Origin: a virus
Taxonomy: Duplodnaviria > Heunggongvirae > Uroviricota > Caudoviricetes
IMG/VR virus record: IMGVR_UViG_648861009_000009
Reading direction: 5' to 3' (one strand)
Length of the DNA stretch: 43,791 nt
Shown: one piece after another, positions 1,009 to 42,102 of the stretch
Position numbering within the stretch: the first letter of the stretch is position 1
How the letters are laid out: every line of letters begins with the position of its first letter
The notes under the pieces: model-generated
Told to the model about the DNA's origin: nothing
The model's database searches: none
Seen by the model: only the letters and a program-made list of their open reading frames with translations
Translations under genes and position numbers: made by a program

Positions 1009-1083
1009 GTCCTCTTAGTTAAATGGATATAACGAGCCCCTCCTAAGGGCTAATTGCAGGTTCGATTCCTGCAGGGGACACCA
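1009..1083 (+). tRNA. argW: tRNA-Arg (anticodon CCU)
   Basis: 75-nt sequence GTCCTCTTAGTTAAATGGATATAACGAGCCCCTCCTAAGGGCTAATTGCAGGTTCGATTCCTGCAGGGGACACCA; cloverleaf, CCT anticodon, 3' CCA. Confidence 0.9.
1069..1083. repeat. attL core (15-bp direct repeat, 3' end of argW)
   Basis: ctgcaggggacacca repeated exactly at 42088-42102. Confidence 0.75.
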
Positions 1084-1244
1084 TTTATCAGTTCGCTCCC
1101 ATCCGTACCAGTCCGCAAAATCCCCTGAATATCAAGCCTTCCGTAGATTCACAGTTCGTCATGGTTCGCGTCAGATCGTTGACAGCCGCACTCCATGACG
1201 GGTAAAAAGTGGATAAAATAATTTTACCCACCGGATTTTTACCC

Positions 1245-2402
1245 ATGCTCACCGTTAAGCAGATTGAAGCAGCAAAGCCGAAAGAAAAACCATACCGCCT
1301 TCTCGATGGTAATGGCCTGTACCTTTATGTCCCTGTGTCAGGGAAAAAGGTATGGCAGCTTCGCTACAAGATTGACGGTAAGGAGAAAATCCTGACCGTC
1401 GGGAAATATCCGCTTATGAGTTTGCAGGAGGCAAGGGATAAAGCATGGACCGCGAGGAAAGACATCTCGGTTGGCATCGATCCGGTAAAAGCGAAAAAGG
1501 CTTCGTCTAACAACAATTCCTTTAGCGCCATTTACAAGGAATGGTACGAGCACAAGAAGCAAGTATGGTCAGTAGGGTATGCGACTGAACTTGCAAAAAT
1601 GTTTGATGACGACATTTTACCTATCATCGGCGGCCTTGAAATTCAGGATATTGAGCCGATAAAACTGCTGGAAGTAATCCGCAGATTTGAAGATCGCGGT
1701 GCAATGGAGCGAGCCAACAAAGCCCGCAGAAGATGCGGAGAGGTTTTCCGTTACGCTATTGTCACTGGTAGGGCTAAATATAACCCGGCACCTGACCTTG
1801 CTGACGCCATGAAGGGATACCGCAAGAAGAACTTCCCGTTTCTCCCAGCAGACCAGATCCCTGCATTCAACAAAGCACTGGCAACATTTTCAGGAAGCAT
1901 CATATCGCTCATTGCGACCAAAGTTTTACGCTACACAGCCCTAAGAACGAAAGAGCTTCGCTCCATGCAATGGAAGAACGTCGATTTTGAAAACAGGATT
2001 ATCACTATCGACGCCAGTGTGATGAAGGGCCGCAAAATTCATGTGGTCCCGATGTCAGACCAGGTGGTTGAACTTCTCACTACGCTAAGCTCAATCACCA
2101 AACCAGTCTCAGAGTTTGTTTTTGCCGGGCGCAACGATAAGAAGAAGCCAATCTGCGAGAACGCGGTTCTACTTGTGATCAAACAAATCGGCTATGAGGG
2201 TCTGGAAAGCGGTCACGGATTCAGGCATGAATTCAGCACGATTATGAACGAGCACGAATGGCCTGCTGACGCTATTGAAGTGCAACTTGCACATGCCAAC
2301 GGCGGATCTGTGCGTGGAATTTACAACCATGCTCAGTATCTCGATAAGCGCAGAGAAATGATGCAGTGGTGGGCGGACTGGATTGATGAAAAGGTGGGCT
2401 AA
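1245..2402 (+). CDS. intS: Tyrosine integrase IntS-type
   Basis: ORF 1209-2402 (GTG at 1209); ATG at 1245 gives MLTVKQIEAAKPKEKPYRLLDGNGLYLYVP matching remembered K-12 IntS; adjacent to argW. Confidence 0.88.
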   Translation: MLTVKQIEAAKPKEKPYRLLDGNGLYLYVPVSGKKVWQLRYKIDGKEKILTVGKYPLMSLQEARDKAWTARKDISVGIDPVKAKKASSNNNSFSAIYKEWYEHKKQVWSVGYATELAKMFDDDILPIIGGLEIQDIEPIKLLEVIRRFEDRGAMERANKARRRCGEVFRYAIVTGRAKYNPAPDLADAMKGYRKKNFPFLPADQIPAFNKALATFSGSIISLIATKVLRYTALRTKELRSMQWKNVDFENRIITIDASVMKGRKIHVVPMSDQVVELLTTLSSITKPVSEFVFAGRNDKKKPICENAVLLVIKQIGYEGLESGHGFRHEFSTIMNEHEWPADAIEVQLAHANGGSVRGIYNHAQYLDKRREMMQWWADWIDEKVG

Positions 2403-2423
2403 CCAACGCTATATCTCAGATAG

Positions 2424-2457
2424 CACAAAGCCTTGCAATCCAGTGCAAAGCTTTGTG
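2424..2457. repeat. Imperfect 14-bp-arm inverted repeat between convergent int and late operon (possible bidirectional terminator)
   Basis: cacaaagccttgca / tgcaaagctttgtg with 6-nt loop; no clear U-tract. Confidence 0.3.
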
Positions 2458-2493
2458 TGTCTCAGTTTTGCCTCATAGGTAACTCTGTGTTAA

Positions 2494-2793
2494 CTACGAT
2501 GCAAGAATCCATACCAATAAGCATCCGATAATTGGGAAAGAAAAATCCAACAAACTTCCCACATCCCACACGCGTGGATCAAAACCTCCCCACCACGGCA
2601 TGTTGACACGTTTCCCTTTCCCAAACTTTTCTATCCAGCGATATTCTGCCTGGGTGTGTTCACGCGCAATGAAGAACGTACAACCGGCTATCGCACCGTA
2701 AGCCCAGTTTCCGGTAAAAATACCAACCAGTACCTGAGCCGCAAAAGCGCAAAGCGAGTGAAGAAATGGAGTGACATCAATGCTCTTAATCAT
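2494..2793 (-). CDS. Small 3-TM membrane protein at the lysogenic-conversion locus (moron, function unknown)
   Basis: 99-aa ORF; start overlaps tailspike stop (ATGA); hydrophobic segments; occupies the slot between tailspike and int where gtrABC/oac lie in relatives. Confidence 0.55.
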   Translation of the reverse strand: MIKSIDVTPFLHSLCAFAAQVLVGIFTGNWAYGAIAGCTFFIAREHTQAEYRWIEKFGKGKRVNMPWWGGFDPRVWDVGSLLDFSFPIIGCLLVWILAS

Positions 2794-4930
2794 GAAACTT
2801 CCCCATTGGTTGAAAATATGGCTCCTCCAACTCCAAGTGTATTTCGTGTTGTGCTCAACCTAAGAGGGCTGGAGTCAGAATTAGAATATCCTGTAGCAGA
2901 AATAAAAGATCCTCCACTAATAGTCAACTGCGGAACATCGGCTATATCTGAATAAGTTCTGTCAGCAACAGTATTATTTATAGCCACATGTGATCCAAAA
3001 AAACTTCTTATTGTTTGGTTTTTAACTTTACTTCCTTCAATGGTTATCCTACTACCACAGTCAGCAATAAATCCTGAATCTGCATCCAGCGTTGCATTCA
3101 TAAAAGAAGCTTCAGATCTCTCTACATCAATCCATCTAATATCTTTTGTGGGATTTGCACCAAATACATGACAAATATTAGAGTTAAACCTTACACCATC
3201 TTGGAGGTGCATTAATTTTTTTATATCTGTACCCCATAGCCTTGGAAAATTAACAGATGCTCCTGCATGGCAATCAAATCCCAACTCAGCCCCTGAGATA
3301 TCTACAGCCTTTCCTGAAATAACAGCACCAGTGTCTGCATTAACGGCTGTTCCACAATTGCGCATATCATTACCAGCAATATCAACACAACTCGCACCAT
3401 CAATACGCACACCAAGTGCACATCCATAAAAACCTTTTTCAATATTTGGTTCAAGGACTTTACCACTTGTTTCTGCATCACTTTCTTCAACGTCATGTCG
3501 TCTTGCATCAACATATGCTGTATGAATGCAGGTTAATCCACGATATGAGCAATGTATAGTTTTATGGTCGCGTATATTAACATTTNNNNNNNNNNNNNNN
3601 NNNNNNNNNNNNNNNNNNNNNNNNNNNNNNNNNNNNNNNNNNNNNNNNNNNNNNNNNNNNNNNNNNNNNAACCATCTCTTACATTCCATCCTATATAACA
3701 ATAGCTTGCACTTGACCCCTGAAAATCTGCTTTAACATTATAAATACAATTAACTGACGCAACCGTACTCTCTGTGCACCGTTCAAACTTGCTTACAGGC
3801 ATTGATGCCTTGACATTATTTACCAGTTGCAGGGAAGAGTATCTGCTATAAGAAAAATCACATACGTAATACCCTTCTGGCATATATGCAGCAACACTTT
3901 CCTCATCAGGAGCACATCCGGTATGATATGCACTAATTTTTGCACCAAAGCTACCATGAATTCCAACGTAGAACTTTCGAGCACCTGAATACGGATAGAA
4001 ATTAAGTTCAGCTTTTTGAGTTACAATAAATGCACAAACATCGCTATCATCTCTATTTTCTTCAATCTGAATAGCAAATACAGGACTTTTTGCTGCATCG
4101 CAAATGTAAAATAAATATTTGTATTCGTAATACGTCCTAACAGTTTTAGTAAACAAACTGGTATCAGAGAAAACCACTGAGTCTTCTGATATTATTTTAA
4201 TCCATGATAAGTCACATCCTGCTGAAATTTCTATTTGCTCATTGAGCACAAAACCGGAAAGAATTTTAATTATGCAAAAGTCAATGCCATTTTTCCATAG
4301 TGGACGCAGTGCAACAGCCGAGTTTAGAGCATCACTAATAGATTTAAAATTACCATATTCCCCAACTGTTATTGTGAATGCATACCTGGAATTAAATACT
4401 GCGGCACTCTCTCCAGAGTTAATAGCTGCAGATATCATGTCATAATTTGATATAAAATCATTTGGCGTGATTATTTCTGCGTTTTTATTGTGCTGTGTTC
4501 TAAGTTTTGAATTTACATGAACACTTTTAACTGCAATACGGGAGTCGTCAACAAGTATTTCATTACCCTCTGTTGCTAACTCTTGTCTTAACTGATCCGG
4601 GTCATACTTCAGCACATTCGGAAAATTGAACTGCTGTGCACCATACGCATCATAAACAGCCATAGAATGGCCTTGCTCAGTTACGAATTTGGCAATCTGT
4701 CCGTTATATACAGGGTAACCAGCAGCGTTAATGATGATTGGTTGCGATACAGGAACGTGAGAACCGTCTTCATTCTCCACATAAACCTGAATCTGGTTTT
4801 CAGGATTTACAGGGTCAGTGTCAATTTTTCCGATATAAATTTTGCCATTGGCAACCGCTTTAAAAGAACGTGCCATAGTGAAGAGTTGCGAAGGCATCGA
4901 TACGATCACATTGGCTGTAATGTCTGTCAT
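2790..4930 (-). CDS. Tailspike protein, P22 gp9-type N-terminal head-binding domain plus distinct receptor-binding domain; interrupted by assembly gap
   Basis: N-terminus [43 protein letters not shown] matches P22 tailspike; ORF spans N-run 3586-3669. Confidence 0.85.
3586..3669. other. Assembly gap (84 N) inside tailspike gene
   Basis: Run of N. Confidence 0.95.
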
Positions 4931-5108: not shown

Positions 5109-6032
5109 TCAGTAGTTATGTACTGAAGGAGGTAATTCTTTATTCTTAAGTCTCATCCATGCTGAAAGATTCGTTGGTCCGTCTGGCTCATTAATATCAA
5201 CATCTCGTGTATGGTTGATTAAAACATCTCTCGCCATATCGATAATACGGGAGAACTCATAACCGCAGTCATGACATCTGCCGGAATAGTTCGATTGAAT
5301 TTGTTTTAATGCCGGATACAGTTCGCGGAATAATGCCTGTGAGCGGTTGGCATAATCCCATAACCATACAAGGCTGTTTGCTTCTTTTGCAGAAAGCTCG
5401 TTTGCTTTCTTCTCTTGTTTGCCAATGAACTCACCTTCAAGTGGAACTCGAGCTGCAAGTGACAGTGCTTCTGTAAACTGCTCCTCACTGATTTCTTTGT
5501 ACGAACATCCAAAATGGGATTTCAGTGACGACCACATGGTGATCATCGCCTTAGCCTGTTTTTCTTTTGGCAGAGACTGACCGCGACTCATGACGAGTTG
5601 TTTAATGGCTTCCTGCTGTTCAGTGGTAATTTTACCCGGCAACGCCTTTTTAGCTTTGCGTGGGTTAACTACATGGCCTTTAGTCCAGTACTCGTATAGC
5701 ACATCGTCACACTCTTCCTGATACTGGATTACCTTGTCGCGGATTTCAGGACGGACTTTGTTTGGTTGAATACTTGAAAGCCAAGCCGCAAATTTACGAA
5801 AGGCAAGACATGTCATTAACTGTTTACCGCCAGCAGAAGGTATTTCGATTTCCGAAATACCTTTGGCAAACCTCTGTTTTAACTTAACAAATTGAGCTGC
5901 CCAAACCATCCCCATGCCTTCAACAACAGGCTTCATAGGAACATAAGGCTCATTGTTAATTCCAACCAAAAAAAGATTTGTTCCGTGGAATGGAACATTG
6001 ATTGTGCGATCTGCAATTGCTAAACTAGTCAT
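5109..6032 (-). CDS. ant: Antirepressor Ant (AntA N-domain type)
   Basis: 307-aa ORF at the immI position adjacent to tailspike, downstream of arc-like gene; RBS AGGAA. Confidence 0.75.
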   Translation of the reverse strand: MTSLAIADRTINVPFHGTNLFLVGINNEPYVPMKPVVEGMGMVWAAQFVKLKQRFAKGISEIEIPSAGGKQLMTCLAFRKFAAWLSSIQPNKVRPEIRDKVIQYQEECDDVLYEYWTKGHVVNPRKAKKALPGKITTEQQEAIKQLVMSRGQSLPKEKQAKAMITMWSSLKSHFGCSYKEISEEQFTEALSLAARVPLEGEFIGKQEKKANELSAKEANSLVWLWDYANRSQALFRELYPALKQIQSNYSGRCHDCGYEFSRIIDMARDVLINHTRDVDINEPDGPTNLSAWMRLKNKELPPSVHNY

Positions 6033-6761: not shown

Positions 6762-7040
6762 ATGACAGATACCAAAGTGAACTTCAGAGAAACCATCTTC
6801 AAGGACTCAAGTGATGCTGTAAATGAGTATGCTGATGGATTTGCTTACTCGTCTTTTGGGGATGTCGGAGCAAGATTTGGTTCAATAGCATTTTTTAAGC
6901 ATGTTTCAGACTGGGTTAATAATGAGGAGATTCAGCCAGTTAGATACCAAATTGCCAACATTCGCATGAGTGAAAATCAACTTCTTGAACTGGCTAAGTA
7001 TATAGTTTCTCAACACGAAGAATCAAAAAAATTAAGCTGA
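6762..7040 (+). CDS. Hypothetical soluble protein, first gene of sieA-position cassette
   Basis: 92-aa ORF, RBS AAGGA, no TM. Confidence 0.5.
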   Translation: MTDTKVNFRETIFKDSSDAVNEYADGFAYSSFGDVGARFGSIAFFKHVSDWVNNEEIQPVRYQIANIRMSENQLLELAKYIVSQHEESKKLS

Positions 7041-7047
7041 CAGAGCC

Positions 7048-7608
7048 ATGATTACTTTTCCTGCCGTAAATGCTGATCATGCAGCGGAGAAAAAGAGAAC
7101 TCTTGGTCGTATGGGGTCGACAGGTGGCATAGGAGAAAAGTCCAATGCTTCGCCTCCAGTTACCAAGAATGATATAACCAAAAACAATAATATCGCTTAT
7201 CTTGGAAAACAATACACTGAGGAGCATGCTATGGGCAGCCCATCAAGAGAAGAGATTGACGCGAAGCTTGGTCAAAACAAAGCAGAAATTGAGTTAATAT
7301 CTGCTAACATGCGCGCTGAAATTTCAGCTTTCAGAGAATTCCAATCTAAGCAATTTACAGCTATGAATCAGTCCCTTAATGAAATTAAGGGACAGATATT
7401 CGCTAGCAATGGCGAAGTTGCAGGGCTCAAAGGTCAAATTGATGGCATTAAAACATCCATGACCGCGACCCAATGGCTCGTTGGTGCGGTTCTCGCTATG
7501 CTTGCGGTAATCATAACGCTTCCGCAGATTCAATCTTACTTCAAGGTTTCTGAGCCGACTGCGAAGGAAGCCGCTAGTGAAACCCATGATACCAAAATAA
7601 AGCAGTGA
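7048..7608 (+). CDS. Coiled-coil protein with C-terminal TM anchor (start may be 7231)
   Basis: 186-aa ORF; strong RBS GAGGAG before internal ATG at 7231; C-terminal WLVGAVLAMLAVIITLP. Confidence 0.5.
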   Translation: MITFPAVNADHAAEKKRTLGRMGSTGGIGEKSNASPPVTKNDITKNNNIAYLGKQYTEEHAMGSPSREEIDAKLGQNKAEIELISANMRAEISAFREFQSKQFTAMNQSLNEIKGQIFASNGEVAGLKGQIDGIKTSMTATQWLVGAVLAMLAVIITLPQIQSYFKVSEPTAKEAASETHDTKIKQ

Positions 7609-7636
7609 TCTTACCAATAAAACCTGGGAGGACAAC

Positions 7637-7864
7637 ATGAAGCAATGGCTCATCATAATTGCTGTTTTTTTGCTCATTTACACTGTTTTCCCAACATTAA
7701 AAGCACCAATGCAAATAATTTCACTGGCAATAATTGCGATTGGTGCTTTCATTGCTGTAGCCGTACTTGTGTTTAAGGTTTTAAAGTTTTTAGTTTGGCT
7801 ATCAAAAGATGATGGATGCAAAGTTCATCAAGAAAAAGAAGGCAAAATAACCAAAGTTGACTAA
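7637..7864 (+). CDS. Small 2-TM membrane protein
   Basis: 75-aa ORF, RBS GGGAGG, two hydrophobic helices, charged C-terminus. Confidence 0.5.
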   Translation: MKQWLIIIAVFLLIYTVFPTLKAPMQIISLAIIAIGAFIAVAVLVFKVLKFLVWLSKDDGCKVHQEKEGKITKVD

Positions 7865-25530: not shown

Positions 25531-25715
25531 GGTCTTCCCCTCTTGCCCTGTTTGACCATCAGGACGCCGTTAACTATTACGTGACGCTCGCCTTTGCTGT
25601 CTCGGTTGTACTTGAGCACTGTTCCTCTTGCGCAGGAAAGCATCCTCGCCACTTCGGTCTGATTGCCTCGTGTCTGGATAAGAAGCTCTGGTATCGTTTG
25701 AATTATGGCGTTCAT
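25527..25715 (-). CDS. ninH: NinH
   Basis: 62 aa; GNQTEVARMLSCARGTVLKY...HVIVNGVLMV matches lambda NinH. Confidence 0.8.
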   Translation of the reverse strand: MNAIIQTIPELLIQTRGNQTEVARMLSCARGTVLKYNRDSKGERHVIVNGVLMVKQGKRGRP

Positions 25716-26361: not shown

Positions 26362-26566
26362 TTACCTTCCCTCGCAATTGAAGAATTGACTGAAGGTCTT
26401 TTTTAATAAATATGCGAGTGCGAATTGAGCAGTAGTTTTCCTTCATTCTGGCGTAGTAATAGTCCTTTCGTTGTTTAAGCTTGTTGGCATCCGCTGTCAT
26501 CCAGTCTTTTACAGCAAACTTAATTAACCAGCGGTGGCAGAGATACCATTTCAGGTAATCATTCAT
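26354..26566 (-). CDS. Hypothetical protein
   Basis: 70-aa ORF in nin region. Confidence 0.4.
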   Translation of the reverse strand: MNDYLKWYLCHRWLIKFAVKDWMTADANKLKQRKDYYYARMKENYCSIRTRIFIKKDLQSILQLRGKVNG

Positions 26567-26735
26567 CGTCTTCTTCCTCGTACATTGAGCTATTCGGATC
26601 GCTCATCAGTTCTGCGCAGCAGTGCTCACACACGTGAACTTCCAGCACATGCAGCTTCTGGCCGCAGTTAGCGCACGTTAAAGCTCGCTCGACGCTTTCT
26701 TTCTGGTATTGAAGGGATTGGGATGGGCTAAGCAT
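26559..26735 (-). CDS. ninF: NinF
   Basis: Internal start gives [46 protein letters not shown] matching lambda NinF. Confidence 0.7.
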   Translation of the reverse strand: MLSPSQSLQYQKESVERALTCANCGQKLHVLEVHVCEHCCAELMSDPNSSMYEEEDDE

Positions 26736-27135
26736 GGCTTTCACCATTAAAAAGTCGCTTGTAAGCATCAATGTCTCGTTTTGCTTCACCAAGCTTTCGT
26801 CTTAATTCCATGTTTTCTGATTCAAGCTTTTCCATGTCTTGTTGGTATCGATCGCGGTGTTCTTTCCATGCTTTTTGATACGCCTTCATGTATGTCATGT
26901 TGGCCTTTCTCTTTGCCTGACGAACTGCGTGGTGGTTTTTCACAAACCAGTCAGGGTCGTTAAATGCTGCTCTGGCGCATGTATACCAATAATTTGTTGC
27001 CTCCCTGTTTAGCCAATAAATACTGATAAATGGCAACCGGATAGACACCATTTTTCGTTGTGACTCTTTCTCGCCAAACATGTGGCCTTTTTTGATGCTA
27101 AGTCCAAATCCAGGTTGAATTAAAAGCATTGTCAT
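26728..27135 (-). CDS. Hypothetical protein with C-terminal coiled coil (inserted between ninE and ninF)
   Basis: ORF 26728-27171; ATG at 27135 overlaps ninE stop (ATGA). Confidence 0.45.
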
Positions 27136-27308
27136 TTCCTCGCGCGATGTCTTAGCCACCGGATATCCCACAGGTGAGCCGTGTAGTTGAAGGTTTTTAC
27201 GTCAGATTCTTTTGGGATTGGCTTGCGTTTATTTCTGGAGAGTTTCGTTGGAAGGTATTTGCAGTTTTCGCAGATGATGTCGGTGATACTTCGTCGCTGT
27301 CGCCTCAT
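27132..27308 (-). CDS. ninE: NinE
   Basis: Internal start gives [22 protein letters not shown]...[14 protein letters not shown] matching lambda NinE. Confidence 0.75.
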
Positions 27309-28309
27309 GCCGCCCTCCTGACGCCCTGCCCGATCGCCATCAATGCCGCTTTGGATACGGTAGTAAACATCCGTCGAGGACTGATGAACGGTCGCCAAAT
27401 CAGCAGCATGGAGCCTTTGCTGTTTCCCTTCTTCTCTAGCCCCGTCGATGGTTCGATAAAATTAATCCGTCCATCAGTGATAATACGAACTTCGTCAACA
27501 CTCTCCAGAGCCTTGCTGAACCATCCGACTGACATATCCTCTGGCACAAGCATAACTACCGTCTGTCGCTGTTGTATGCACTGCTCAGCGGCTTTTTCCA
27601 CCCACGGCCTGATATTGCTGTACGGTGGGTTATTCCAGATTGCACCGTGGCTTACCCACTCAGAATTGAGCGCGTCGTCGGCCTCAGTTAGCCAGTGAGC
27701 GCACAGAGCATTTTTGNNNNNNNNNNNNNNNNNNNNNNNNNNNNNNNNNNNNNNNNNNNNNNNNNNNNNNNNNNNNNNNNNNNNNNNNNNNNNNNNNNNN
27801 NNNNNNNNNNNNNNNNNNNNNNNNNNNNNNNNNNNNNNNNNNNNNNNNNNNNNNNNNNNNNNNNNNNNNNNNNNNNNNNNNNNNNNNNNNNNNNNNNNNN
27901 NNNNNNNNNNNNNNNNNNNNNNNNNNNNNNNNNNNNNNNNNNNNNNNNNNNNNNNNNNNNNNNNNNNNNNNNNNNNNNNNNNNNAGCCTTGCTGAACCAT
28001 CCGACTGACATTATCCTCTGGCACAAGCATAACTACCGTCTGTCGCTGTTGTATGCACTGCTCAGCGGCTTTTTCCACCCACGGCCTGATATTGCTGTAC
28101 GGTGGGTTATTCCAGATTGCACCGTGGCTTACCCACTCAGAATTGAGCGCGTCGTCGGCCTCAGTTAGCCAGTGAGCGCACAGAGCATTTTTGTCGCTCG
28201 CTGCCGAATCCAGCCAGAATCCAAACTCAATATCCAGTGCATCAAAAAGCCAAAGCGGCGTTTGCCAGCAGTCCTTGTCGTGTGCTGGCGTATTTGATTT
28301 GATAGTCAT
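27305..28309 (-). CDS. Phage N6-adenine DNA methyltransferase (Dam-like), reading frame spans assembly gap and duplicated flank
   Basis: [19 protein letters not shown]...AIWNNPPYS (NPPY motif IV); gap 27717-27984; true gene probably ~180 codons. Confidence 0.7.
27717..27984. other. Assembly gap (268 N) flanked by ~200-bp duplicated sequence
   Basis: 27510-27716 repeats at 27985-28190 with a 1-nt indel. Confidence 0.9.
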
Positions 28310-28752
28310 GCAGCCTTCCCTTTTCGTTGTGACCATTCATACTCTCGCCGGGAGTCATCACTCCACCGCACGTTGCGCTCTGAGCCGAACCAGAACATGA
28401 TTTCGATAAGCTCAGTCATGCTGGCCTTTCGCATTTTGCTGGTACGCACGCCAAGCATAACAACGCCACCGTCGATACCAGGCGCACTTCGTTGCTCCAG
28501 TTTTTTGGTCTTAAGCCACAGGGCAGTGAACAGATCTTTCCAGTCCTCCGGCGCAAGTCTCTCTCCATGCCAGAGCACCTGACGCGATACGTCCTGCAAT
28601 AACGCCCACATAAGGCGGTTTTGAGGATTGCTCCGCTTTGGTTCTTTAATGTGGACTTCGTGAGGTGACTTGTCGTCGATCGGAAGTGAGAGTATTGCGT
28701 CTATGGCGTTGTTTCTGATTGCTTCGTTGCGAAGCATGTATATTTGCTTCAT
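28306..28752 (-). CDS. ninB: NinB (recombination mediator)
   Basis: SNPQNRLMWALLQDVSRQVLWHGERLAPEDWKDLFTA and C-terminal WS...EW match lambda NinB; start at MKQIYML. Confidence 0.8.
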   Translation of the reverse strand: MKQIYMLRNEAIRNNAIDAILSLPIDDKSPHEVHIKEPKRSNPQNRLMWALLQDVSRQVLWHGERLAPEDWKDLFTALWLKTKKLEQRSAPGIDGGVVMLGVRTSKMRKASMTELIEIMFWFGSERNVRWSDDSRREYEWSQRKGKAA

Positions 28753-28759
28753 CGTTACC

Positions 28760-28966
28760 TCAACTAACAAAACGCCACGCCATTTTTGCTACAGCGACAG
28801 GCATAACACCGATAATCACCCAGACAAATGCAGCGCCAAACAACGTATACCATGGGTCTTTACCGTCATTCACAAGACGAATGTAGCTATGCAGAACAAT
28901 AAATAACGTCAGAAGAATCCATCCAACGCCAACGCATTTGAATGCGACGAGCATAAACTCAGCCAC
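28760..28966 (-). CDS. Small membrane protein (ren position)
   Basis: 68-aa hydrophobic ORF between replication gene and ninB. Confidence 0.4.
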   Translation of the reverse strand: MAEFMLVAFKCVGVGWILLTLFIVLHSYIRLVNDGKDPWYTLFGAAFVWVIIGVMPVAVAKMAWRFVS

Positions 28967-34224: not shown

Positions 34225-34530
34225 ATGACAGTAGTCATTACATATCTGGCTGACGATAACGCCAGAAATCGCCGCAGAGCACGCAGACAGGCTCAACGTG
34301 AGCAGGCAATGCAAGAACAGCGACTGGCGCGAAAAATTGCGCTAAAGCTCTCTGGTTGCGTCAGAGCAGACAAAGCAGCATCACTCGGAAGCCTTCTCTG
34401 CAAGAAGGCAGATGAAGTCGAGCGTAAACAGAACCGTATTTACTACCGCAAGCCACGCTGTGAAATGGGTGTGACTTGCTCAGGCCGCCAGAAGCAACGC
34501 GGAAAATCAATTCCAGCTTATTACGATTGA
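34225..34530 (+). CDS. N: N antiterminator (arginine-rich motif)
   Basis: 101 aa; N-terminal NARNRRRARRQAQ; C-terminal GVTCSGRQKQRGKSIP resembles lambda N. Confidence 0.85.
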   Translation: MTVVITYLADDNARNRRRARRQAQREQAMQEQRLARKIALKLSGCVRADKAASLGSLLCKKADEVERKQNRIYYRKPRCEMGVTCSGRQKQRGKSIPAYYD

Positions 34531-34538
34531 GGTGAGCC

Positions 34539-34676
34539 ATGCTCAAGAAAGTCAAACGCCGACTTTACAAAGAAGGTAGATATTCATGCCAGTTGCCAAA
34601 ATGCGACACGACAAAATGGAGTGTCGATGATTGGTGTAACTGGATAGATAGATACGGAACTTGGTGGGATAAATAA
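34539..34676 (+). CDS. Small Cys/Trp-rich hypothetical protein
   Basis: 45-aa ORF with RBS GAGGTGA; below ORF-track cutoff. Confidence 0.3.
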   Translation: MLKKVKRRLYKEGRYSCQLPKCDTTKWSVDDWCNWIDRYGTWWDK

Positions 34677-34800
34677 CAGGTAACTTAAGCGGATTTATTT
34701 TCGCAGCAAACCACTTATTTGAGGTGAGATATGGAAGAAGAATTTGAAGAGTTCGAAGAGCATCCCCAGGATGTGATGGAACAATACCAGGACTATCCTT

Positions 34801-35001
34801 ATGACTACGACTATTGATAAAAATCAATGGTGTGGACAATTCAAGCGATGCAATGGATGCAAGCTGCAATCGGAATGCATGGTTAAGCCTGAAGAAATGT
34901 TTCCTGTAATGGAAGATGGGAAATATGTCGATAAATGGGCAATACGAACGACGGCAATGATTGCCAGAGAACTTGGTAAACAGAATAACAAGGCTGCCTG
35001 A
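34801..35001 (+). CDS. ral: Restriction-alleviation protein Ral-like
   Basis: 66 aa MTTTIDKNQWCGQFKRCNGCKLQSECMVKPEEMF...; position after N; identification from memory. Confidence 0.5.
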   Translation: MTTTIDKNQWCGQFKRCNGCKLQSECMVKPEEMFPVMEDGKYVDKWAIRTTAMIARELGKQNNKAA

Positions 35002-35016
35002 TGGTGGCCTTTATTT

Positions 35017-35331
35017 TTGGCACTAACAACAGAGGCTAACATGGAATTTAAAGGTACTGAAGGTAAGTGGGAAATAATAATGGATGGCGATGAGATTAAA
35101 ATCATCCAGGCAGACTCACTTGAAAATGGCGCAGGCTGGCGTTCGTATATTGCAATCTGTGAGGAAGTTCAATGTATTGAAGATGCCAATCTAATAGCGG
35201 CAGCACCTGACCTTTTAAATGCCCTGAAAGCGATGCTAAACAAGGCATACAAGCAAAACTGGAATGACCATTATCCTGATGAAGTATCGAAAGCACAGTC
35301 AGCAATTAGCAAAGCTCTTGGGGAAGAATGA
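35017..35331 (+). CDS. Hypothetical protein
   Basis: 104-aa ORF (may start at MEFKG, 35041). Confidence 0.45.
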   Translation: MALTTEANMEFKGTEGKWEIIMDGDEIKIIQADSLENGAGWRSYIAICEEVQCIEDANLIAAAPDLLNALKAMLNKAYKQNWNDHYPDEVSKAQSAISKALGEE

Positions 35332-35491
35332 TGAATAAGAAATACATTGTTGAAGTTATAGAGCGAGAAACGAAAGAAGTAATTAAACATTTCGAATTTG
35401 ATAATTATAGAAAAGCTGACCGCGTCGAAGAAGGATTGTTGCGACAAAGTAATCTCGAAAAATTTGATGTTGTCATGCGATGCGAATAAGC
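35330..35491 (+). CDS. Small hypothetical protein
   Basis: 53-aa ORF overlapping upstream stop; below ORF-track cutoff. Confidence 0.3.
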
Positions 35492-35582
35492 GCCTATAGC
35501 AGATTTACGAGTCTGCTATGTGAGCAATGTCGCTCGTAACTAAACAGGAGCCGACTTGTTCTGATTATTGGAAATCTTCTTT

Positions 35583-35608
35583 GCCCTCCAGTGTGAGGGC
35601 GATTTTTT
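35583..35608 (+). terminator. Rho-independent terminator
   Basis: GCCCTC-CAGTGT-GAGGGC followed by GATTTTTTA. Confidence 0.65.
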
Positions 35609-35628
35609 ATCTATGAGGATATGAATAG

Positions 35629-35997
35629 ATGTCAAACATCAAAAAATACATCATTGATTACGACTGGAAAGCATCAATAGAAATTGAAATCGACCATGAC
35701 GTAATGACAGAGGAAAAACTTCACCAGATTAATAATTTCTGGTCAGACTCTAAATACCGACTCAATAAACACGGCGCTGTATTAAATGCTGTATTAATCA
35801 TGCTGGCGCAACATGCTCTGCTTATAGCAATTTCGAAAGACTTAAATGCATATGGTGTTGTTTGTGAGTTCGACTGGGATGATGGAAATGGTCAGGAAGG
35901 ATGGCCTCCAATGGATGGTAGCGAAGGAATAAGAATTACCGATATCGACACATCAGGAATATTTGATTCAGATGATATGACTATCAAAGCCGCCTGA
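35629..35997 (+). CDS. Hypothetical acidic protein (terminator-bracketed moron)
   Basis: 122-aa ORF with RBS GAGGA just after terminator. Confidence 0.5.
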   Translation: MSNIKKYIIDYDWKASIEIEIDHDVMTEEKLHQINNFWSDSKYRLNKHGAVLNAVLIMLAQHALLIAISKDLNAYGVVCEFDWDDGNGQEGWPPMDGSEGIRITDIDTSGIFDSDDMTIKAA

Positions 35998-36031
35998 GAG
36001 CGTTTTTAAAGAATACAACGAAGGAGGATAT

Positions 36032-36886
36032 ATGAGTGAAGTAACAGATTTAGTTGTTATTGAAAAAGCAAATGCAATGACTGTATTTCAGTCTGCCGAC
36101 CAGATTGAAGAAATCCTTCAAAAGGTTGAACGTGAAGTTATGTCCTTTGTGCCTGATATCACAACGGCAAAGGGCAGAAAGGAGATCGCTTCTCTGGCGT
36201 ATAAAGTTGCGCAGACGAAAACATATCTCGATGGTCTTGGCAAAGACCTTGTTGCTGAACTGAAGGAAATTCCAAAGCTAATTGATGCCAACCGCAAGAC
36301 AGTGCGCGATCGCCTTGATGAACTGAAAGCCAAGGCGCGCCAGCCTCTTACTGATTATGAGGAAGAACAGGCGCGGATTAAAGCCGAAGAAGAAGCTAAG
36401 GCAGCAGCTGAAGCTCTCGCAAAGCAAATTGAGTCTGACCATGAAATAGCGATTTTGATGGATCGCGAATTTGACCGCCAAAGAGAAGAGGCAAGACTCA
36501 AAGCGGAGCAGGAAAAGCGAGAGCATGAAGAACGATTAAAAAGAGAAGCTGAAGAGAAAGCCAGAGCAGAAGCCGAAGCAAAGGCAAAAGCCGAAATTGA
36601 AGCAGCAGCAAGGCGAGAAGCAGAAGCTAAGGCCGCAGCGGAACGTGCAGAGCGTGAACGCATTGAAGCCGAGCAACGAGCACAGCGCGAAGCAAAAGAG
36701 GCAGCAGAACGAGCTGAAAGAGAAAAGCAGGCAGCAATTGAAGCAGAACGCAGAAAAGCACAGGAGGAGGCTGAACGAATCCGTCGCGAGGCTGAAGCAA
36801 AAGAGCAAGCCAGAATAGCAGAAGAAAAAGAATCAAGGACGAAGAAGAGCGCAGAGCAAAGGATAAAGCTCACCGGAAAGAAGTAA
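36032..36886 (+). CDS. Coiled-coil protein with long E/A/K/R-rich low-complexity region; possible frameshifted C-terminus to 36999
   Basis: 284-aa ORF, RBS AAGGAGGA; stop-free downstream frame encodes ...NNKILADLIKVGASEDVAKNIITAIVKGEVFATKITY. Confidence 0.55.
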   Translation: MSEVTDLVVIEKANAMTVFQSADQIEEILQKVEREVMSFVPDITTAKGRKEIASLAYKVAQTKTYLDGLGKDLVAELKEIPKLIDANRKTVRDRLDELKAKARQPLTDYEEEQARIKAEEEAKAAAEALAKQIESDHEIAILMDREFDRQREEARLKAEQEKREHEERLKREAEEKARAEAEAKAKAEIEAAARREAEAKAAAERAERERIEAEQRAQREAKEAAERAEREKQAAIEAERRKAQEEAERIRREAEAKEQARIAEEKESRTKKSAEQRIKLTGKK

Positions 36887-37022
36887 ATAACAAAATACTT
36901 GCTGACCTTATCAAGGTTGGCGCATCAGAAGATGTTGCTAAAAATATCATAACAGCCATCGTAAAAGGCGAAGTATTCGCAACAAAAATAACCTACTAAT
37001 AAACCAACATAAGGAACCACCC

Positions 37023-37154
37023 ATGATTTACGCAATCGCGGGAGGCGCTCGCATGGGTGCCTTCCAACTAAATGAATCTTTACTTGAACGAATCACCCGT
37101 AAATTACGTGACGGATGGAAAAGAGTTGAGGTCTTATTATGCGCAATGAAATAG
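37023..37154 (+). CDS. cIII: CIII (FtsH inhibitor)
   Basis: 43 aa; ESLLERITRKLRDGWKR matches lambda CIII core; RBS AAGGAA. Confidence 0.75.
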   Translation: MIYAIAGGARMGAFQLNESLLERITRKLRDGWKRVEVLLCAMK

Positions 37155-37291
37155 CCATCAATCACCAGATGCTTCGTGCTGCACAGAACAAAGCAGTAAT
37201 AGCCAGATTTATTGGTGATTCAAAAATGTGGCTTGAAGCAAATAAAGCGATGAAATCAGCTATCAACCTTCCGTGGTATCGCAGGAAATGA
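37139..37291 (+). CDS. Kil-like small protein
   Basis: 50-aa ORF overlapping cIII 3' end; IARFIGDSKMW resembles remembered lambda Kil motif. Confidence 0.45.
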   Translation: MRNEIAINHQMLRAAQNKAVIARFIGDSKMWLEANKAMKSAINLPWYRRK

Positions 37292-37366
37292 GTTTTACAG
37301 ATAACTGGTCAGACGAAGAATCCATTCGTCAGATGAAAGAATTAATCGGTAACGAAGGAGATATTC

Positions 37367-37537
37367 ATGTCACTTGCAACCACAGTGAAGGAGAGCAAGT
37401 TACAGAGACGCATGTACACGCAGCAGGCGTTAATGTATCGCCAGAAGGGAGATCGTGAAGGTGTTCGCGTATTTTTAAATGCGGCAAAGACTGAAGTATT
37501 AAATCAGCGTTATTTCCTTGGGCCATGTCCATTCTGA
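37367..37537 (+). CDS. Small protein immediately upstream of erf (Arf-like position)
   Basis: 56-aa ORF with RBS GGAG; alternative overlapping frame 37288-37458 also possible. Confidence 0.35.
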   Translation: MSLATTVKESKLQRRMYTQQALMYRQKGDREGVRVFLNAAKTEVLNQRYFLGPCPF

Positions 37538-37547
37538 GAACAATCAT

Positions 37548-38153
37548 ATGAGCAAAGAATTTTACGCAAGACTGGCAGCTATTCAGGAGAATCTGAACGC
37601 GCCAAAGAATCAGTACAACTCATTCGGCAAATATAAATACAGAAGCTGCGAAGATATTCTTGAAGGCGTTAAGCCGTTACTGAATGGTCTGTTTTTATCA
37701 ATCAGCGATGAAGTTGTGTTGATTGGTGATCGGTATTACGTGAAAGCCACGGCAACTATTACCGATGGCGAAAACAGTCATACAGCAACCGCTCTTGCAC
37801 GAGAGGAAGAAAGCAAGAAAGGAATGGATTCTGCACAAGTTACGGGAGCTACAAGCTCTTATGCACGCAAGTATTGCCTCAATGGTTTGTTCGGCATTGA
37901 TGATGCGAAAGATGCAGATACCGACGAGCATAAACATCAGCAGGACGCAGCAGCAAAGCAATCAAAACCATCACCTACACCTGAACAGGTTCTAAAAGCA
38001 TTCACTGACGCAGCATTGCAGAAAAACACCGTAGAAGAGCTTAAACAGGCGTTCGCCAAAGCGTGGAAGATGCTCGAAGGCACACCGGAGCAGCACAAAG
38101 CGCAGGACGTTTACAACATCAGACGAGACGAATTAGAAGGAGCGGCTGCTTAA
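37548..38153 (+). CDS. erf: Single-strand annealing protein Erf
   Basis: MSKEFYARLAAIQENLNAPKNQYNSFGKYKYRSCEDILEGVKPLL matches P22 Erf. Confidence 0.85.
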   Translation: MSKEFYARLAAIQENLNAPKNQYNSFGKYKYRSCEDILEGVKPLLNGLFLSISDEVVLIGDRYYVKATATITDGENSHTATALAREEESKKGMDSAQVTGATSSYARKYCLNGLFGIDDAKDADTDEHKHQQDAAAKQSKPSPTPEQVLKAFTDAALQKNTVEELKQAFAKAWKMLEGTPEQHKAQDVYNIRRDELEGAAA

Positions 38154-38536
38154 TGGCACATTCGATTACTGTAAGACTAAACAAGCCCGCAAGAGAGTTT
38201 CAGGCCGGGGAAAATATCGGATTCAACATCCGTGCTGGAGTTCAGTATTACGATCGCCAGACAAAAAAGAAAGAATGGACAAACTACAGCGCCGTTGTAT
38301 TTGCCAAGCCGGGAGCGCAAGCGGATTACTACCGTAGTGTTCTTGTTGAAGGTGGCATTGTTGAAATTACCGGAGAAAACATCAGGGTTGATGTTTATCA
38401 GGGGCAAAATGGTCAATCAATCACTCTTGAATTACTGAATGCAAAGATTGGATTTGCAACTTCAGGAAATAGCCAACAGCAGCAAAGTAGCAATCATCAA
38501 AATCATCCTGAATACGACGATTCAATTCCCTTCTAA
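38153..38536 (+). CDS. ssb: Single-stranded DNA-binding protein
   Basis: ATG overlaps erf stop (TAATG); Gln-rich linker; acidic C-terminal tail DDSIPF as in SSB. Confidence 0.75.
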   Translation: MAHSITVRLNKPAREFQAGENIGFNIRAGVQYYDRQTKKKEWTNYSAVVFAKPGAQADYYRSVLVEGGIVEITGENIRVDVYQGQNGQSITLELLNAKIGFATSGNSQQQQSSNHQNHPEYDDSIPF

Positions 38537-38559
38537 AGTAGCAACATAAGGATTCCATT

Positions 38560-38853
38560 ATGCCAGCGCCTATGTATGGTGCGGATGACCCGCGCCGCTG
38601 TTCCGGCAATTCCGTATCGGAGGTGCTGGATAAATTCAGAAAAAACTACGACCTGATAATGTCTCTACCGCAGGAAACGAAAGAGGAAAAGGAATTTCGC
38701 CACTGTATATGGCTTGCAGAGAAAGAAGAACGCGAGCGAATTTACCAGACATCAATCCGACCATTCCGCAAAGCCACATATACCCACTTCCCTGAAATTG
38801 ACCCGCGCCTGCGTAATTACCGCTCACGCTATGGCGCTATCAGTAATGACTGA
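38560..38853 (+). CDS. Hypothetical protein
   Basis: 97-aa ORF. Confidence 0.4.
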
Positions 38854-39027
38854 GGAATTTACCATGAGAGGACTTGCATACAATCCCGGCATTCTTCCGG
38901 CAGAAATGATTATTCGCCAACGCGTAAAGCCAATGCCATCGAGAGAGGAATTGCTTAAGAGAAATTCTTTTCCTTCAGTGAATCAAAACAAATATCTGAA
39001 TGCGATGTGGCGTAAAGGAGGCAAGCA

Positions 39028-39327
39028 GTGAGTGTATATCTTATTGATAAACGTCGACGTGGGCAACAAATACCACCTGTAGGAATTCCGAATCACACAT
39101 GGTTTTGCGTACTTGATATCGATGGTATGGATGCGTTGGTTGACACTCGTCATTACTGCGATACCGCAACAGCTACTCCGGCGAAAGCAAAGAAAATGGC
39201 TGCTCTGATAGAAAACTGGACTCCACCTGATGGTTGGTGCAATGGGAATGATCGAGATTGGCATGAAAAAATGAAGGGCTATATCTGCGATTTCTTACGT
39301 AAATGCAACGGATTCAGGGTGATGTGA
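39028..39327 (+). CDS. Hypothetical protein
   Basis: 99-aa ORF. Confidence 0.4.
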
Positions 39328-39328
39328 C

Positions 39329-40144
39329 ATGAACAAGATTGACTATCAGGCACTGCGTGCTAAGGCAGAAAAAGCAACGTGTGGTGAGTGGTCGCTCGAA
39401 TATGGAGAGGAGAGATTTGATGCTGGTGATGCGCTAATTCATCGTGAAGTTGTTGGATATCTTCCCATTTGCAGAATTGAAGGAGCGCATCCTGAAAGCG
39501 GTTTCGATGAAGATTTCCAGATGGAACAGCAGGCCAATGCTGAATTTATTGCTGCCTTTAATCCAAAGGTTGCTTTGGCACTACTGGATGAACGGGAAAG
39601 AAACCAGCAATACATCAAACGCCGTGACCAGGAGAACGAGGATATTGCTCTTACGGTTGGGAAGCTGAGAGTTGAGCTTGAGGAAGTAAAACAACACGCT
39701 GAAGAATTATCCGAAACCAAGGCTGTTCGTAACCAATGGCGGCCAGATATTTGCCCAATAACCGGACGTGCATTTTTCATGTGGATTGAGCATCCAACAT
39801 TGGGGAATGTGCCGACATATGGTGGCCCATTAGATAGTTACACCATTCCAACAAAGGACGGTGACGGTGAGTTTTCATGTGAGCGTTACGATCATGATTT
39901 TGGCGGTTGGGTAGAAAGCGAATGTCTTGGGTTATATCTGATTGATGATAGAGAACAATGCAGGGTCTACGAACTGGAGGAACGCGTTAAGGAACTGGAT
40001 GCTCGGGAAATATCGCTCCCGGAACGTAGCAGCATGCTTCATCGAACAGATTTTCACGATGATTACCAAACGGTAATGGCATACAAAGTTTCTGAAGTCA
40101 TCGCTGCAATCCGCGCCGCTGGCATTCGCATCAAAGGAGAGTGA
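39329..40144 (+). CDS. Ead/Ea22-like protein
   Basis: 271 aa; N-terminus MNKIDYQALRAKAEKATCGEW typical of Ead/Ea22-like prophage proteins. Confidence 0.65.
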   Translation: MNKIDYQALRAKAEKATCGEWSLEYGEERFDAGDALIHREVVGYLPICRIEGAHPESGFDEDFQMEQQANAEFIAAFNPKVALALLDERERNQQYIKRRDQENEDIALTVGKLRVELEEVKQHAEELSETKAVRNQWRPDICPITGRAFFMWIEHPTLGNVPTYGGPLDSYTIPTKDGDGEFSCERYDHDFGGWVESECLGLYLIDDREQCRVYELEERVKELDAREISLPERSSMLHRTDFHDDYQTVMAYKVSEVIAAIRAAGIRIKGE

Positions 40145-40145
40145 T

Positions 40146-40742
40146 ATGAGCGCTATAACCAAAGAACGTATCAAATTATTCATTAAAAATCCGCTTGATA
40201 ACGGACTTACTCGTGGCGAACAAATGGAACTGGCACGAATTGCACTGGCATCACTGGAACGCGAACAGATTCGCCACGAGCATGCCAAATGGTCTGACTC
40301 CACATTTGGCTGCGTTGGCCCCATTGGTCCGCTGAAACATCTCTCAAAAGAGGCACTGGAAGCCGCAGCCGAACCAGACGATCTTAGCGAGTGGGCTGAT
40401 ATGCAGTTTCTGTTGTGGGATGCACAGCGCCGTGCTGGCATCAGCGATGCTGAAATTACCGCTGCTATGGAAGATAAATTGAAGATCAACATGGAGCGCC
40501 AGTGGCCTGAGCCAAAAGATGGTGAGCCTCGCTTGCACATTAAAGAACCCGGCAACTCTCCGGTAATTCCGGATGGTTGGGTTATGGTGCCGAAGGAGTT
40601 AACCCCGGAAATGATGAGAGCCGTTCAGATTAGAAGTGAGCTTGGAGGGTATGCCACTTCCAATCTATCTGGTGCATACAATATGTTTTCTGAGTTCTGG
40701 AATGTTGCTGTCTCAGCTGCGCCTAAGGTGGATGATTTATGA
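40146..40742 (+). CDS. Hypothetical protein
   Basis: 198-aa ORF, ATGA-type overlap with upstream gene. Confidence 0.45.
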   Translation: MSAITKERIKLFIKNPLDNGLTRGEQMELARIALASLEREQIRHEHAKWSDSTFGCVGPIGPLKHLSKEALEAAAEPDDLSEWADMQFLLWDAQRRAGISDAEITAAMEDKLKINMERQWPEPKDGEPRLHIKEPGNSPVIPDGWVMVPKELTPEMMRAVQIRSELGGYATSNLSGAYNMFSEFWNVAVSAAPKVDDL

Positions 40743-41041
40743 ATCTATATCGCTGCCCATTCTGTGGTTCCACTGTGCTTAACATCGGATACTCATTCAG
40801 TATCAGAGGGAAAATGCGCTATGTGTCATGCAAATGTGGTGCCCAAGGACCAGAAAAACGAACTAAATCTGAAGCGATTTCTTCATGGAATAGTCGAATG
40901 AAAGTATGGGTTTATGATCCAGAAACCATATTAAACGCTGAAGAGCGCAGGAGAACGGAAGTCTATATTCATAACCTTAATGAAGATGGATTTACACCAG
41001 TGCTTGTAAAGGCTACTCCGCAGGAGGTTAACCATGGCTAA
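40739..41041 (+). CDS. Lar-family restriction-alleviation-like zinc-finger protein
   Basis: 100 aa; LYRCPFCGS ... YVSCKCGAQGP Cys pairs. Confidence 0.55.
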   Translation: MNLYRCPFCGSTVLNIGYSFSIRGKMRYVSCKCGAQGPEKRTKSEAISSWNSRMKVWVYDPETILNAEERRRTEVYIHNLNEDGFTPVLVKATPQEVNHG

Positions 41042-41071
41042 CCTGCAACTTGCCGTCAAAGGTGAATAACA

Positions 41072-41128
41072 ATCCTCGCACTCGCGGGGATTTATTTTAT
41101 CTGAACTCGCTACGGCGAGTTTTGTTTT
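41072..41128 (+). terminator. Tandem rho-independent terminators
   Basis: ATCCTCGC-ACTC-GCGGGGAT + TTTATTTTAT; AACTCGC-TACG-GCGAGTT + TTTGTTTT. Confidence 0.6.
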
Positions 41129-41141
41129 ATGGAGATGATAA

Positions 41142-41309
41142 ATGCACTTCCGAGTCACAGGTGAATGGAATGGAGAACCATTCAACAGAGTTATCGAAGC
41201 AGAGAACATCAATGACTGCTATGACCACTGGATGATATGGGCGCAGATAGCACATGCAGAAGTAACCAATATTCGAATTGAAGAACTGAAAGAACACCAA
41301 GCCGCCTGA
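41142..41309 (+). CDS. Small hypothetical protein between terminators
   Basis: 55-aa ORF with RBS GGAG; followed by hairpin GCCGCC-TGAT-GGCGGT + T6; below ORF-track cutoff. Confidence 0.35.
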   Translation: MHFRVTGEWNGEPFNRVIEAENINDCYDHWMIWAQIAHAEVTNIRIEELKEHQAA

Positions 41310-41335
41310 TGGCGGTTTTTTATTGGAGACAAGAA

Positions 41336-41680
41336 ATGTCAGATTTGGCTATGAAGGTTTTGAAATGGCAATCAACTGGCGATGTCGGCATCAGTAGCGC
41401 AACTCTTGCCTCAATCGCATGCGGCCTGAAAAAGAATATCTATGGTCATCACTTCGGCGCTCCCCATGACGCAGCAGACTTTCGGCGATGCGTTGCACTT
41501 GTTGAGCAGATTCCAGAAATCAGAGATTCATTCGACAAGGTTGCAAAGCGCGTTCCGGCATTCAAAGGAATCCTCAACGAATGGGATTCACTCGTTGCTC
41601 TGTTGAAGTCTGAAATGAAGACGTACGGGAACAAAGCACCAGAGACTTACAGTAGAATTAGCGAGTTACGCAAGGACTAA
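41336..41680 (+). CDS. Hypothetical protein
   Basis: ORF 41309-41680; preferred start MSDLAMKVLKW at 41336 with RBS GGAG. Confidence 0.45.
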   Translation: MSDLAMKVLKWQSTGDVGISSATLASIACGLKKNIYGHHFGAPHDAADFRRCVALVEQIPEIRDSFDKVAKRVPAFKGILNEWDSLVALLKSEMKTYGNKAPETYSRISELRKD

Positions 41681-41813
41681 CCATAAAATAACACGCCTCA
41701 CACTCGATGAGGCATGTTCATTGCTCAAGATATCCAGACCTATCATCGCCGCATCAATGCGTTTTTTTATTGCCTGATTTGCAGGTTCGATTCCCTATTC
41801 GGAGATAGCACTC

Positions 41814-42014
41814 ATGCAACACGAACTACAGCCTGATTCACTGGTTGATTTGAAATTCATCATGGCCGATACTGGCTTCGGTAAAACCTTCATCTATGAC
41901 CGGATTAAGTCCGGCGACCTGCCAAAAGCCAAAGTTATCCACGGGCGAGCAAGATGGTTATATCGTGACCATTGTGAATTCAAAAATAAGCTCTTAAGCC
42001 GCGCCAATGGGTAA
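41814..42014 (+). CDS. torI: Excisionase TorI/AlpA family
   Basis: 66 aa MQHELQPDSLVDLKFIMADTGFGKTFIYDRIKSGDLPKAKVIHGRARWLY; winged-helix excisionase pattern matching remembered KplE1 TorI; adjacent to attR. Confidence 0.8.
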   Translation: MQHELQPDSLVDLKFIMADTGFGKTFIYDRIKSGDLPKAKVIHGRARWLYRDHCEFKNKLLSRANG

Positions 42015-42087
42015 AATAGCGGGTAAAATATTTCTCACATCTAAAAAACATCATTCTAATCAATCCCCTGTCACGTCAAGTAGATGT

Positions 42088-42102
42088 CTGCAGGGGACAC
42101 CA
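42088..42102. repeat. attR core (15-bp direct repeat of argW 3' end)
   Basis: ctgcaggggacacca identical to 1069-1083. Confidence 0.75.

Follow-up and report, generated by a model that had tools for sequence, protein, structure and literature searches.

An apparently complete P22-like prophage in argW of Escherichia coli, with integrase and excisionase genes at opposite ends of the integrated element

Does a prophage that occupies the tRNA gene argW in the manner of the defective KplE1/CPS-53 element of Escherichia coli K-12, with its integrase gene at one end and its excisionase gene at the other, hold a whole phage between the two, and does that set it apart from what has been described? The question is raised by the viral record IMGVR_UViG_648861009_000009 (IMG/VR; Caudoviricetes), a stretch of 43,791 nucleotides that is called the window here and that was first described, from its letters alone, as carrying an intact argW prophage. 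To judge from its genes, the element is very probably a temperate P22-like podovirus (Lederbergvirus) of the group that includes Sf6, HK620, CUS-3 and Kapi1, integrated in the 3' end of E. coli argW by way of the IntS/TorI system. That this complete-looking prophage is also inducible is rather likely, although held with less assurance than its identity.

ARAGORN called a single tRNA, tRNA-Arg(CCU) at 1009-1083 on the plus strand, which is argW. Its final 15 nt, CTGCAGGGGACACCA (attL core, 1069..1083, plus strand), recur exactly once, at 42088..42102 on the same strand (attR core); no third copy was found on either strand of the window when 2 mismatches were tolerated, and none of 100 shuffled controls produced two matches. 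The boundaries were set by an empty-site comparison in which bases 700-1083 were fused in silico to bases 42103-42520 and searched for in complete E. coli genomes. The fused flanks were found there as a single piece with 802 of 802 bases identical (100%) in many genomes, and at least 80% of the query lay at one locus in 1414 genomes. Because the empty site is matched exactly, the element is a precise insertion between the two cores, as the preliminary description had proposed; argW is complete after integration, its 3' end being supplied anew by the core that the phage brings in. In K-12, attB is followed by a T, which extends the shared core to the published 16 bp; in the present host a G follows, and the core measures 15 bp. 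The flanking host DNA is that of E. coli, with yfdC (1..933, plus strand, 100% identical to the annotated yfdC of E. coli MS 198-1) and argW on the left. On the right (42103..43791, assigned from the annotation of MS 198-1 and of the empty-site genomes) a DUF4942 gene fragment of 50 aa (42312-42464, plus strand) is followed by cscB, the sucrose permease gene of the csc (sucrose) locus (42544-43791, minus strand), where K-12 has dsdC. The argW locus is known to be hypervariable and rich in prophage remnants (PMC8787464), and intS adjoins argW in 1687 of 5426 complete genomes; the DUF4942 fragment is held by the empty-site genomes too and is therefore taken as an older remnant at this locus.

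The integrase gene intS (1245..2402, plus strand) lies beside attL, downstream of argW and in the same orientation, and reads away from the tRNA gene into the prophage. It encodes a tyrosine integrase of 385 aa in which Pfam recognises Arm-DNA-bind_3, Phage_int_M and Phage_integrase, and which is 98.2% identical to IntS of K-12, 97.9% to that of Sf6 and 97.4% to that of HK620; by eye, none of the seven changes relative to K-12 falls in the catalytic motifs (the Arg in LRTKEL, HGFRHEF and the Tyr in RGIYNH). At the far end, torI (xis; 41814..42014, plus strand) encodes a recombination directionality factor (RDF) of 66 aa that matches the excisionase family phrog_66 and is 100% identical to TorI of K-12, gp18 of Sf6 and HkaC of HK620. 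It is the last gene of the prophage, with 73 bp between its end and the attR core. When attP was rebuilt in silico from the left arm of attR and the right arm of attL, it could be aligned over its full length with the attP regions annotated in Sf6 and HK620, with scattered substitutions only, and in both of these records the annotated core lies between the TorI homologue and int. For the circular phage an order of torI, attP and intS, all in one orientation, is evident from the sequence, and the collinear alignment shows that intS and torI are neighbours only in this form, across attP. The crossover falls within the 15-bp core shared with argW, and intS consequently comes to lie at attL and torI at attR. 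The preliminary description, which had placed the integrase at the tRNA-proximal end reading inward, the excisionase at the far end beside attR and attP between them in the circle, is borne out on all of these counts.

The att arms were compared with those of the same relatives. In the P' arm of attL (1084..1244, plus strand; compared with attL of K-12 and with Sf6), a predicted intS promoter with the -35 hexamer TTGACA at 1179-1184 and the -10 hexamer TAAAAA at 1203-1208 is identical to that of K-12, as are the GGTAAAA-type (TAAA-containing) arm repeats at 1201, 1211, 1222 and 1237; by K-12 mapping, transcription would start about 28 nt before the ATG. Upstream of this part attL carries 3 substitutions relative to K-12, all of them common to Sf6. 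Both the promoter and the transcription start of intS have been mapped experimentally in K-12, where the promoter overlaps arm-type IntS sites and TorI sites (PMC2951348), and the promoter predicted here likewise lies inside attL, where it would overlap the arm-type and TorI sites. On the attR side, where the P arm (42015..42087, plus strand) was aligned with K-12, Sf6 and HK620, the GGTAAAA repeats at 42010 and 42022 are shared unchanged with K-12. For integration host factor (IHF), an exact search, the only kind made, found no match to the consensus WATCAANNNNTTR in the att arms.

Work on KplE1 and HK620 suggests how such a module might operate. In the lysogen, intS would be read from its own sigma-70 promoter inside attL and would be kept low by IntS on the arm sites and by TorI (PMC2951348). 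As the distal gene of an N-antiterminated early-left (PL) operon, torI would be expressed only after a cI repressor of the S24 type had been inactivated, and TorI, IntS and IHF would then recombine attL with attR, leading to excision (PMC2951348). Phage lambda likewise uses a tyrosine integrase with an arm-binding domain and a small excisionase in an IHF-assisted recombination of attL with attR, but there int and xis are neighbours on the same side of attP, and induction brings about their joint transcription from PL. Unlike in lambda, attP here separates the two genes, and by analogy with the published systems they would be uncoupled in the prophage, with intS under its own autoregulated promoter in attL (PMC2951348).

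The likeness to KplE1/CPS-53 noted in the preliminary description holds throughout the module: both elements use the argW site and its core, and in both intS adjoins attL and torI, with the same orientation, adjoins attR. Next to the near-identity of the two proteins, the promoter and arm region of attL does not differ at all, and the attR arm differs little. KplE1 differs in being a 10.2-kb remnant without cI, replication, lysis or virion genes, whereas a phage genome of about 40.5 kb lies between the ends here. That a full phage lies between them had also been stated, and the complete P22-like gene set agrees with this; the novelty that the statement implied does not stand, since the layout has been published for live phages. 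Panis et al. (2010) found the module to be conserved in CUS-3, HK620 and Sf6, which are live phages, and counted 736 representatives of the layout in which a tRNA gene is followed by an integrase gene (the 'STI' shape) (PMC2951348), and Panis et al. (2012) reported TorI to be 100% identical to HkaC and to P18 of Sf6 (PMC3509656). For Kapi1, attP was described between int and xis, with the genes hence at opposite ends of the prophage (PMC8787464), and Kapi1 and CUS-3 are, as the present element appears to be, P22-like temperate phages in argW (PMC8787464; PMC2951348). As the split of int and xis in whole phages is already published, the contrast with the defective KplE1 is not new; the opposite-end layout is documented in live phages and predicted for hundreds of tRNA-linked integrases.

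A further feature was seen immediately upstream of torI. The 16-mer TTGCAGGTTCGATTCC (41779..41794, plus strand), 20 nt upstream of the torI start, is identical to the part of the argW T-arm at 1054-1069, a match that none of 100 shuffles reproduced. The last 30 nt of argW are in this way represented in the phage by two halves, the 16-mer and the core at 42088-42102, which bracket torI and the P arm of attP. The arrangement is conserved in KplE1 of K-12, in Sf6 and in HK620, where the spot is annotated as a cII-dependent integration promoter, and no mention of the split argW halves was found in the IntS/TorI and Kapi1 literature cited here. It could be imagined that int and xis became separated through the insertion of an RDF cassette into an ancestral attP that had a longer stretch in common with the tRNA gene, or through recombination of such a cassette within it, or that the tRNA-derived 16-mer was later co-opted as a cII-dependent promoter, but we consider this improbable. 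A scan of viral contigs for an ancestral attP with an uninterrupted 30-nt argW 3' end returned none, only host copies of argW: wherever a match to the 30-mer had enough sequence upstream, the rest of argW stood there with at most 5 mismatches, which marks these matches as host tRNA copies. The scan neither supports nor refutes the insertion idea.

Whether a whole phage lies between the att sites depends on the genes, and all proteins of the virion, lysis, replication and control functions have full-length matches in Pfam or in the PHROG families. For most of them, identity over the full length to proteins of Sf6, HK620, mEp043 or 611R6 is 91-100%. The P22-type virion set was found with its terminases, portal, scaffold, coat, gp4, gp10, gp26, gp14, gp7, gp20 and gp16, and the lambdoid control circuit with cI (including its S24 peptidase), cro, cII, N, Q and the lysis cassette. 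The immunity, replication, lysis and virion modules are all present and full-length, which is not what a defective remnant would look like. In DNA searches the best matches were isolated phages and prophage-derived records of the group of P22-like phages around Sf6, HK620, CUS-3, N7, HF4s and 611R6, while the early region was closest to mEp043 and Sf101; the corrected size of about 40.5 kb compares with 39.0 kb for the Sf6 record, 38.3 kb for HK620 and 40.2 kb for CUS-3.

The correction of the size concerns two runs of N. Gap 1 consists of 84 N at 3586-3669 inside the tailspike gene (2790..4930, minus strand), and its flanks are 1 base apart in MS 198-1. Once a single base is substituted for the N run, the gene has an open frame of 685 aa, of which 682 of 686 positions are identical to MS 198-1, and the two halves are out of frame as written only because of the length of the gap. 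An insertion sequence hidden in gap 1 was considered and rejected, as the flanks abut within 1 base of the intact homologue, there is no target duplication and the gap was estimated at 84 bp. Gap 2, of 268 N at 27717-27984, lies in the nin/Dam region, and its flanks are duplicated: 27509-27716 equals 27985-28193 but for one extra T, an overlap of 208 bp, which also rules out that the N run masks real sequence of the same length. When gap 2 is collapsed with the left copy, a Dam methylase of 175 aa results that is identical to that of strain E7476, whereas the right copy gives a frameshift and thereby indicates a homopolymer read error at the contig end. To judge from their flanks, both N runs are artefacts of scaffolding or assembly. 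The length of 41,034 bp first given is accordingly correct for 1069-42102 as written, but about 560 bp of it are gap artefact, and the corrected span is about 41,034 - 83 - 477 = 40,474 bp, with a phage genome of about 40,459 bp.

Lesions were screened for by tblastn of reference open reading frames (ORFs) against the gap-corrected window, after a length-filtered ORF comparison; an unfiltered ORF-against-ORF table was dropped, as most of it consisted of shadow ORFs. A near-identical protein divided between two frames came up once only, from a gene of the early-left region resembling Sf6 gp33. It has a run of five A at about 36826-36830 where Sf6 and mEp043 have six, which leaves 284 aa instead of 322 aa of a TolA-like protein rich in Glu, Ala and Lys. 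The A5 run may be a real lesion or a homopolymer sequencing error, and the gene is in either case accessory. The earlier statement that there are no obvious inactivating lesions apart from the gaps can therefore be kept for the essential genes, which are full-length and, where the gaps were closed in silico, intact, but not for this accessory gene, and the word 'intact' applies as a judgement at the level of the sequence.

Several points weigh against reading the element as a functional phage. One is the frameshift just described; another is the P arm of attR, which differs at a few positions from all of K-12, Sf6 and HK620 (CATCATTCT replaces CACCATTCC, for instance, and the spacer TCACG replaces CTGCT). 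The assembly is moreover a draft that contains two gaps and, at a contig end, one homopolymer error or more; further errors or point lesions may be hidden in it, and inducibility, excision and virion production are properties that we infer. Taken together with the crowding of argW by prophage remnants and the frequency of intS beside it, the frameshift and the unique attR substitutions would fit an alternative in which the prophage looks complete but is cryptic, that is, neither inducible nor infectious owing to point mutations that escaped notice, and represents a domesticated element at an earlier stage of a decay like that of KplE1. We regard this as unlikely, though as the most serious of the alternatives. 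Every essential gene is full-length, and most of the products have the high identity given above to proteins of phages that have been propagated. The frameshift, for its part, falls in a homopolymer of a draft assembly that shows the same type of error at a contig end, and the attR spacer is variable among relatives as well, including MS 198-1 and 611R6. That contigs of different lambdoid prophages of one genome were joined over the two N runs, so that the seemingly complete phage would be no single physical element, is very improbable. There are indeed two scaffold gaps, and gap 2 falls in a nin/Dam region that recurs from one lambdoid prophage to another (matches in 2214 of 5426 genomes), a typical cause of contig breaks. 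Yet gap 1 interrupts a single tailspike gene, whose two halves flank it and lack just 1 base in comparison with MS 198-1, the contig ends at gap 2 have 208 identical bases in common and give an intact Dam gene when joined, the outer ends are two sides of one chromosomal site, and the gene order is the canonical one of Sf6 and HK620 throughout.

The interpretation of the element as a temperate P22-like phage is thus retained, and its map can be given from attL onwards. Here intS (plus strand) is followed by a membrane ORF of 99 aa and the tailspike gene (both minus strand), the immI region and the virion module (minus strand), then by Rz, endolysin, holin, Q, nin, primase-helicase, O, cII and cro (all minus strand), and finally by cI, N and the PL operon as far as torI (plus strand). 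The tailspike has a Pfam Head_binding domain at residues 1-113, and its C-terminal 264 aa, the receptor domain, are 99% identical to the isolated phages HZ41, JEP4 and HEMP4. In the immI region, the antirepressor Ant (5109..6032, minus strand; P22_AR_N and P22_AR_C) is accompanied by an Arc-like ribbon-helix-helix regulator (6266-6406, minus strand; 50% identical to an Arc-family protein of MS 198-1) and, divergent from the latter, by a Mnt-like ribbon-helix-helix regulator (6512-6676, plus strand; Pfam Arc). The ejection proteins follow, resembling gp16 (7861-9984; match to phrog_6704 over 1-707 of 707) and gp20 (9969-11312; phrog_770, DNA transfer protein, and phrog_917, as family matches for the ejection block) and ending with gp7 (11323-12015; P22_gp7, 1-230 of 230), all on the minus strand; the block as a whole (7861..12015) has 98% nucleotide identity to phages E212 and EC.P3.

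The remaining virion genes, also on the minus strand, are those of gp14, the needle protein gp26, gp10, gp4 and an hkbT-like ORF (12018..15243), with full-length matches to HK620, Sf6 and 611R6 and the Pfam families DUF2824, Phage_stabilise and P22_Tail-4. These are followed by coat (15286-16557; P22_CoatProtein), scaffold (16569-17453; Phage-scaffold), portal (17467-19593; P22_portal), large terminase (19596-21008; Terminase_3) and small terminase (21005-21430; phrog_1482). In the block from coat to small terminase (15286..21430) the matches to reference phages are full-length at 99-100%. On the same strand lie the lysis cassette with Rz (23226-23693; Phage_lysis), endolysin (23690-24166; 99% identical to the mEp043 endolysin) and holin (24150-24473; Phage_holin_3_1), the late antiterminator Q (24907-25530; Antiterm) and the nin region (25527..28966), which holds gap 2 and contains ninH, rusA, ninF, ninE, the Dam methylase gene, ninB and others. 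Replication is represented by a primase-helicase (29043-30923; Toprim_2/DnaB_C) and the replication protein O (31031-31891; Phage_rep_O), with 100% protein identity to gp55 and gp54 of the siphovirus mEp043. This module (29043-31891) resembles that of mEp043 and not the O/P module of Sf6 and HK620, and it is a plain example of how lambdoid mosaicism crosses the boundary between tail types. The minus-strand genes end with cII (32065-32343; Phage_CII) and cro (32452-32652; Cro). On the plus strand, cI (32753-33469) combines HTH_3 with Peptidase_S24, and SOS-type induction is expected on account of the latter domain; both cI and cro are 100% identical to HK620. The early-left operon (34225..41680, plus strand) comprises N, ral, a DUF2528 gene, the gp33-like gene, cIII, kil, erf, abc2, ea genes and a dATP/dGTP pyrophosphohydrolase gene, ends at torI and has several terminator-like sites on the plus strand upstream of torI.

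Sf6 and HK620 have the same gene order and, in both records, the annotated order torI-attP-int, and their portal, coat, gp10, gp4, scaffold and large terminase are 91-100% identical to those found here. Compared with them, the prophage has, besides the mEp043-like primase-helicase module, another allele of the C-terminal parts of gp16 and gp20 and another receptor-binding domain of the tailspike; its immI region (ant, arc and mnt) looks functional, whereas that of HK620 is a remnant. The prophage-derived record vB_EcoP-611R6 shares the chromosomal context, from yfdC-argW to torI-csc, but the matches to Kapi1, CUS-3 and 611R6 extend over no more than 37-62% of the left half, where nucleotide identity is 93-97%. 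The exact mosaic was absent from deposited phages and from complete E. coli genomes, where the best match, at 96.4% identity, extends over 89% of a 22.8-kb core segment. Both the parts and the arrangement of this new mosaic have already been described. What it means is mostly a matter of annotation, in that an apparently complete phage of the Sf6/HK620 type occupies the hypervariable argW locus of this strain, and the practical yield is a corrected map of about 40.5 kb with artefactual gaps and one homopolymer frameshift to be re-checked.

The accessory ORFs remain to be mentioned. Between the tailspike gene and intS lies orf99 (2494..2793, minus strand), which encodes a small predicted membrane protein of 99 aa with hydrophobic segments (Kyte-Doolittle) that belongs to phrog_1443, a family of no assigned function, and is 100% identical in MS 198-1. 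It takes the slot of the seroconversion genes of relatives, which is occupied by oac in Sf6 and by an O-antigen polymerase-like gene in HK620; neither an oac nor an O-antigen polymerase gene is present here. An ORF of Kapi1 in the same slot, likened to orf99 by position only, was tested by its authors and caused no change of the lipopolysaccharide (PMC8787464). Pfam was uninformative for most of ten accessory ORFs (the 6204-7864 cluster, orf99, an hkaS-like ORF, the gp33-like gene and others), and PADLOC gave no defence-system match for any of the ten. After the mnt-like gene, three ORFs of 92, 186 and 75 aa (6762..7864, plus strand) match phrog_4231, phrog_5820 and phrog_7294, again families without assigned function. 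Two of the three have membrane segments predicted by hydropathy, and their position is that of the sieA slot of P22; they may be superinfection-exclusion or conversion genes. Accessory membrane ORFs on the lysogen-side strand may change the cell surface or exclude other phages.

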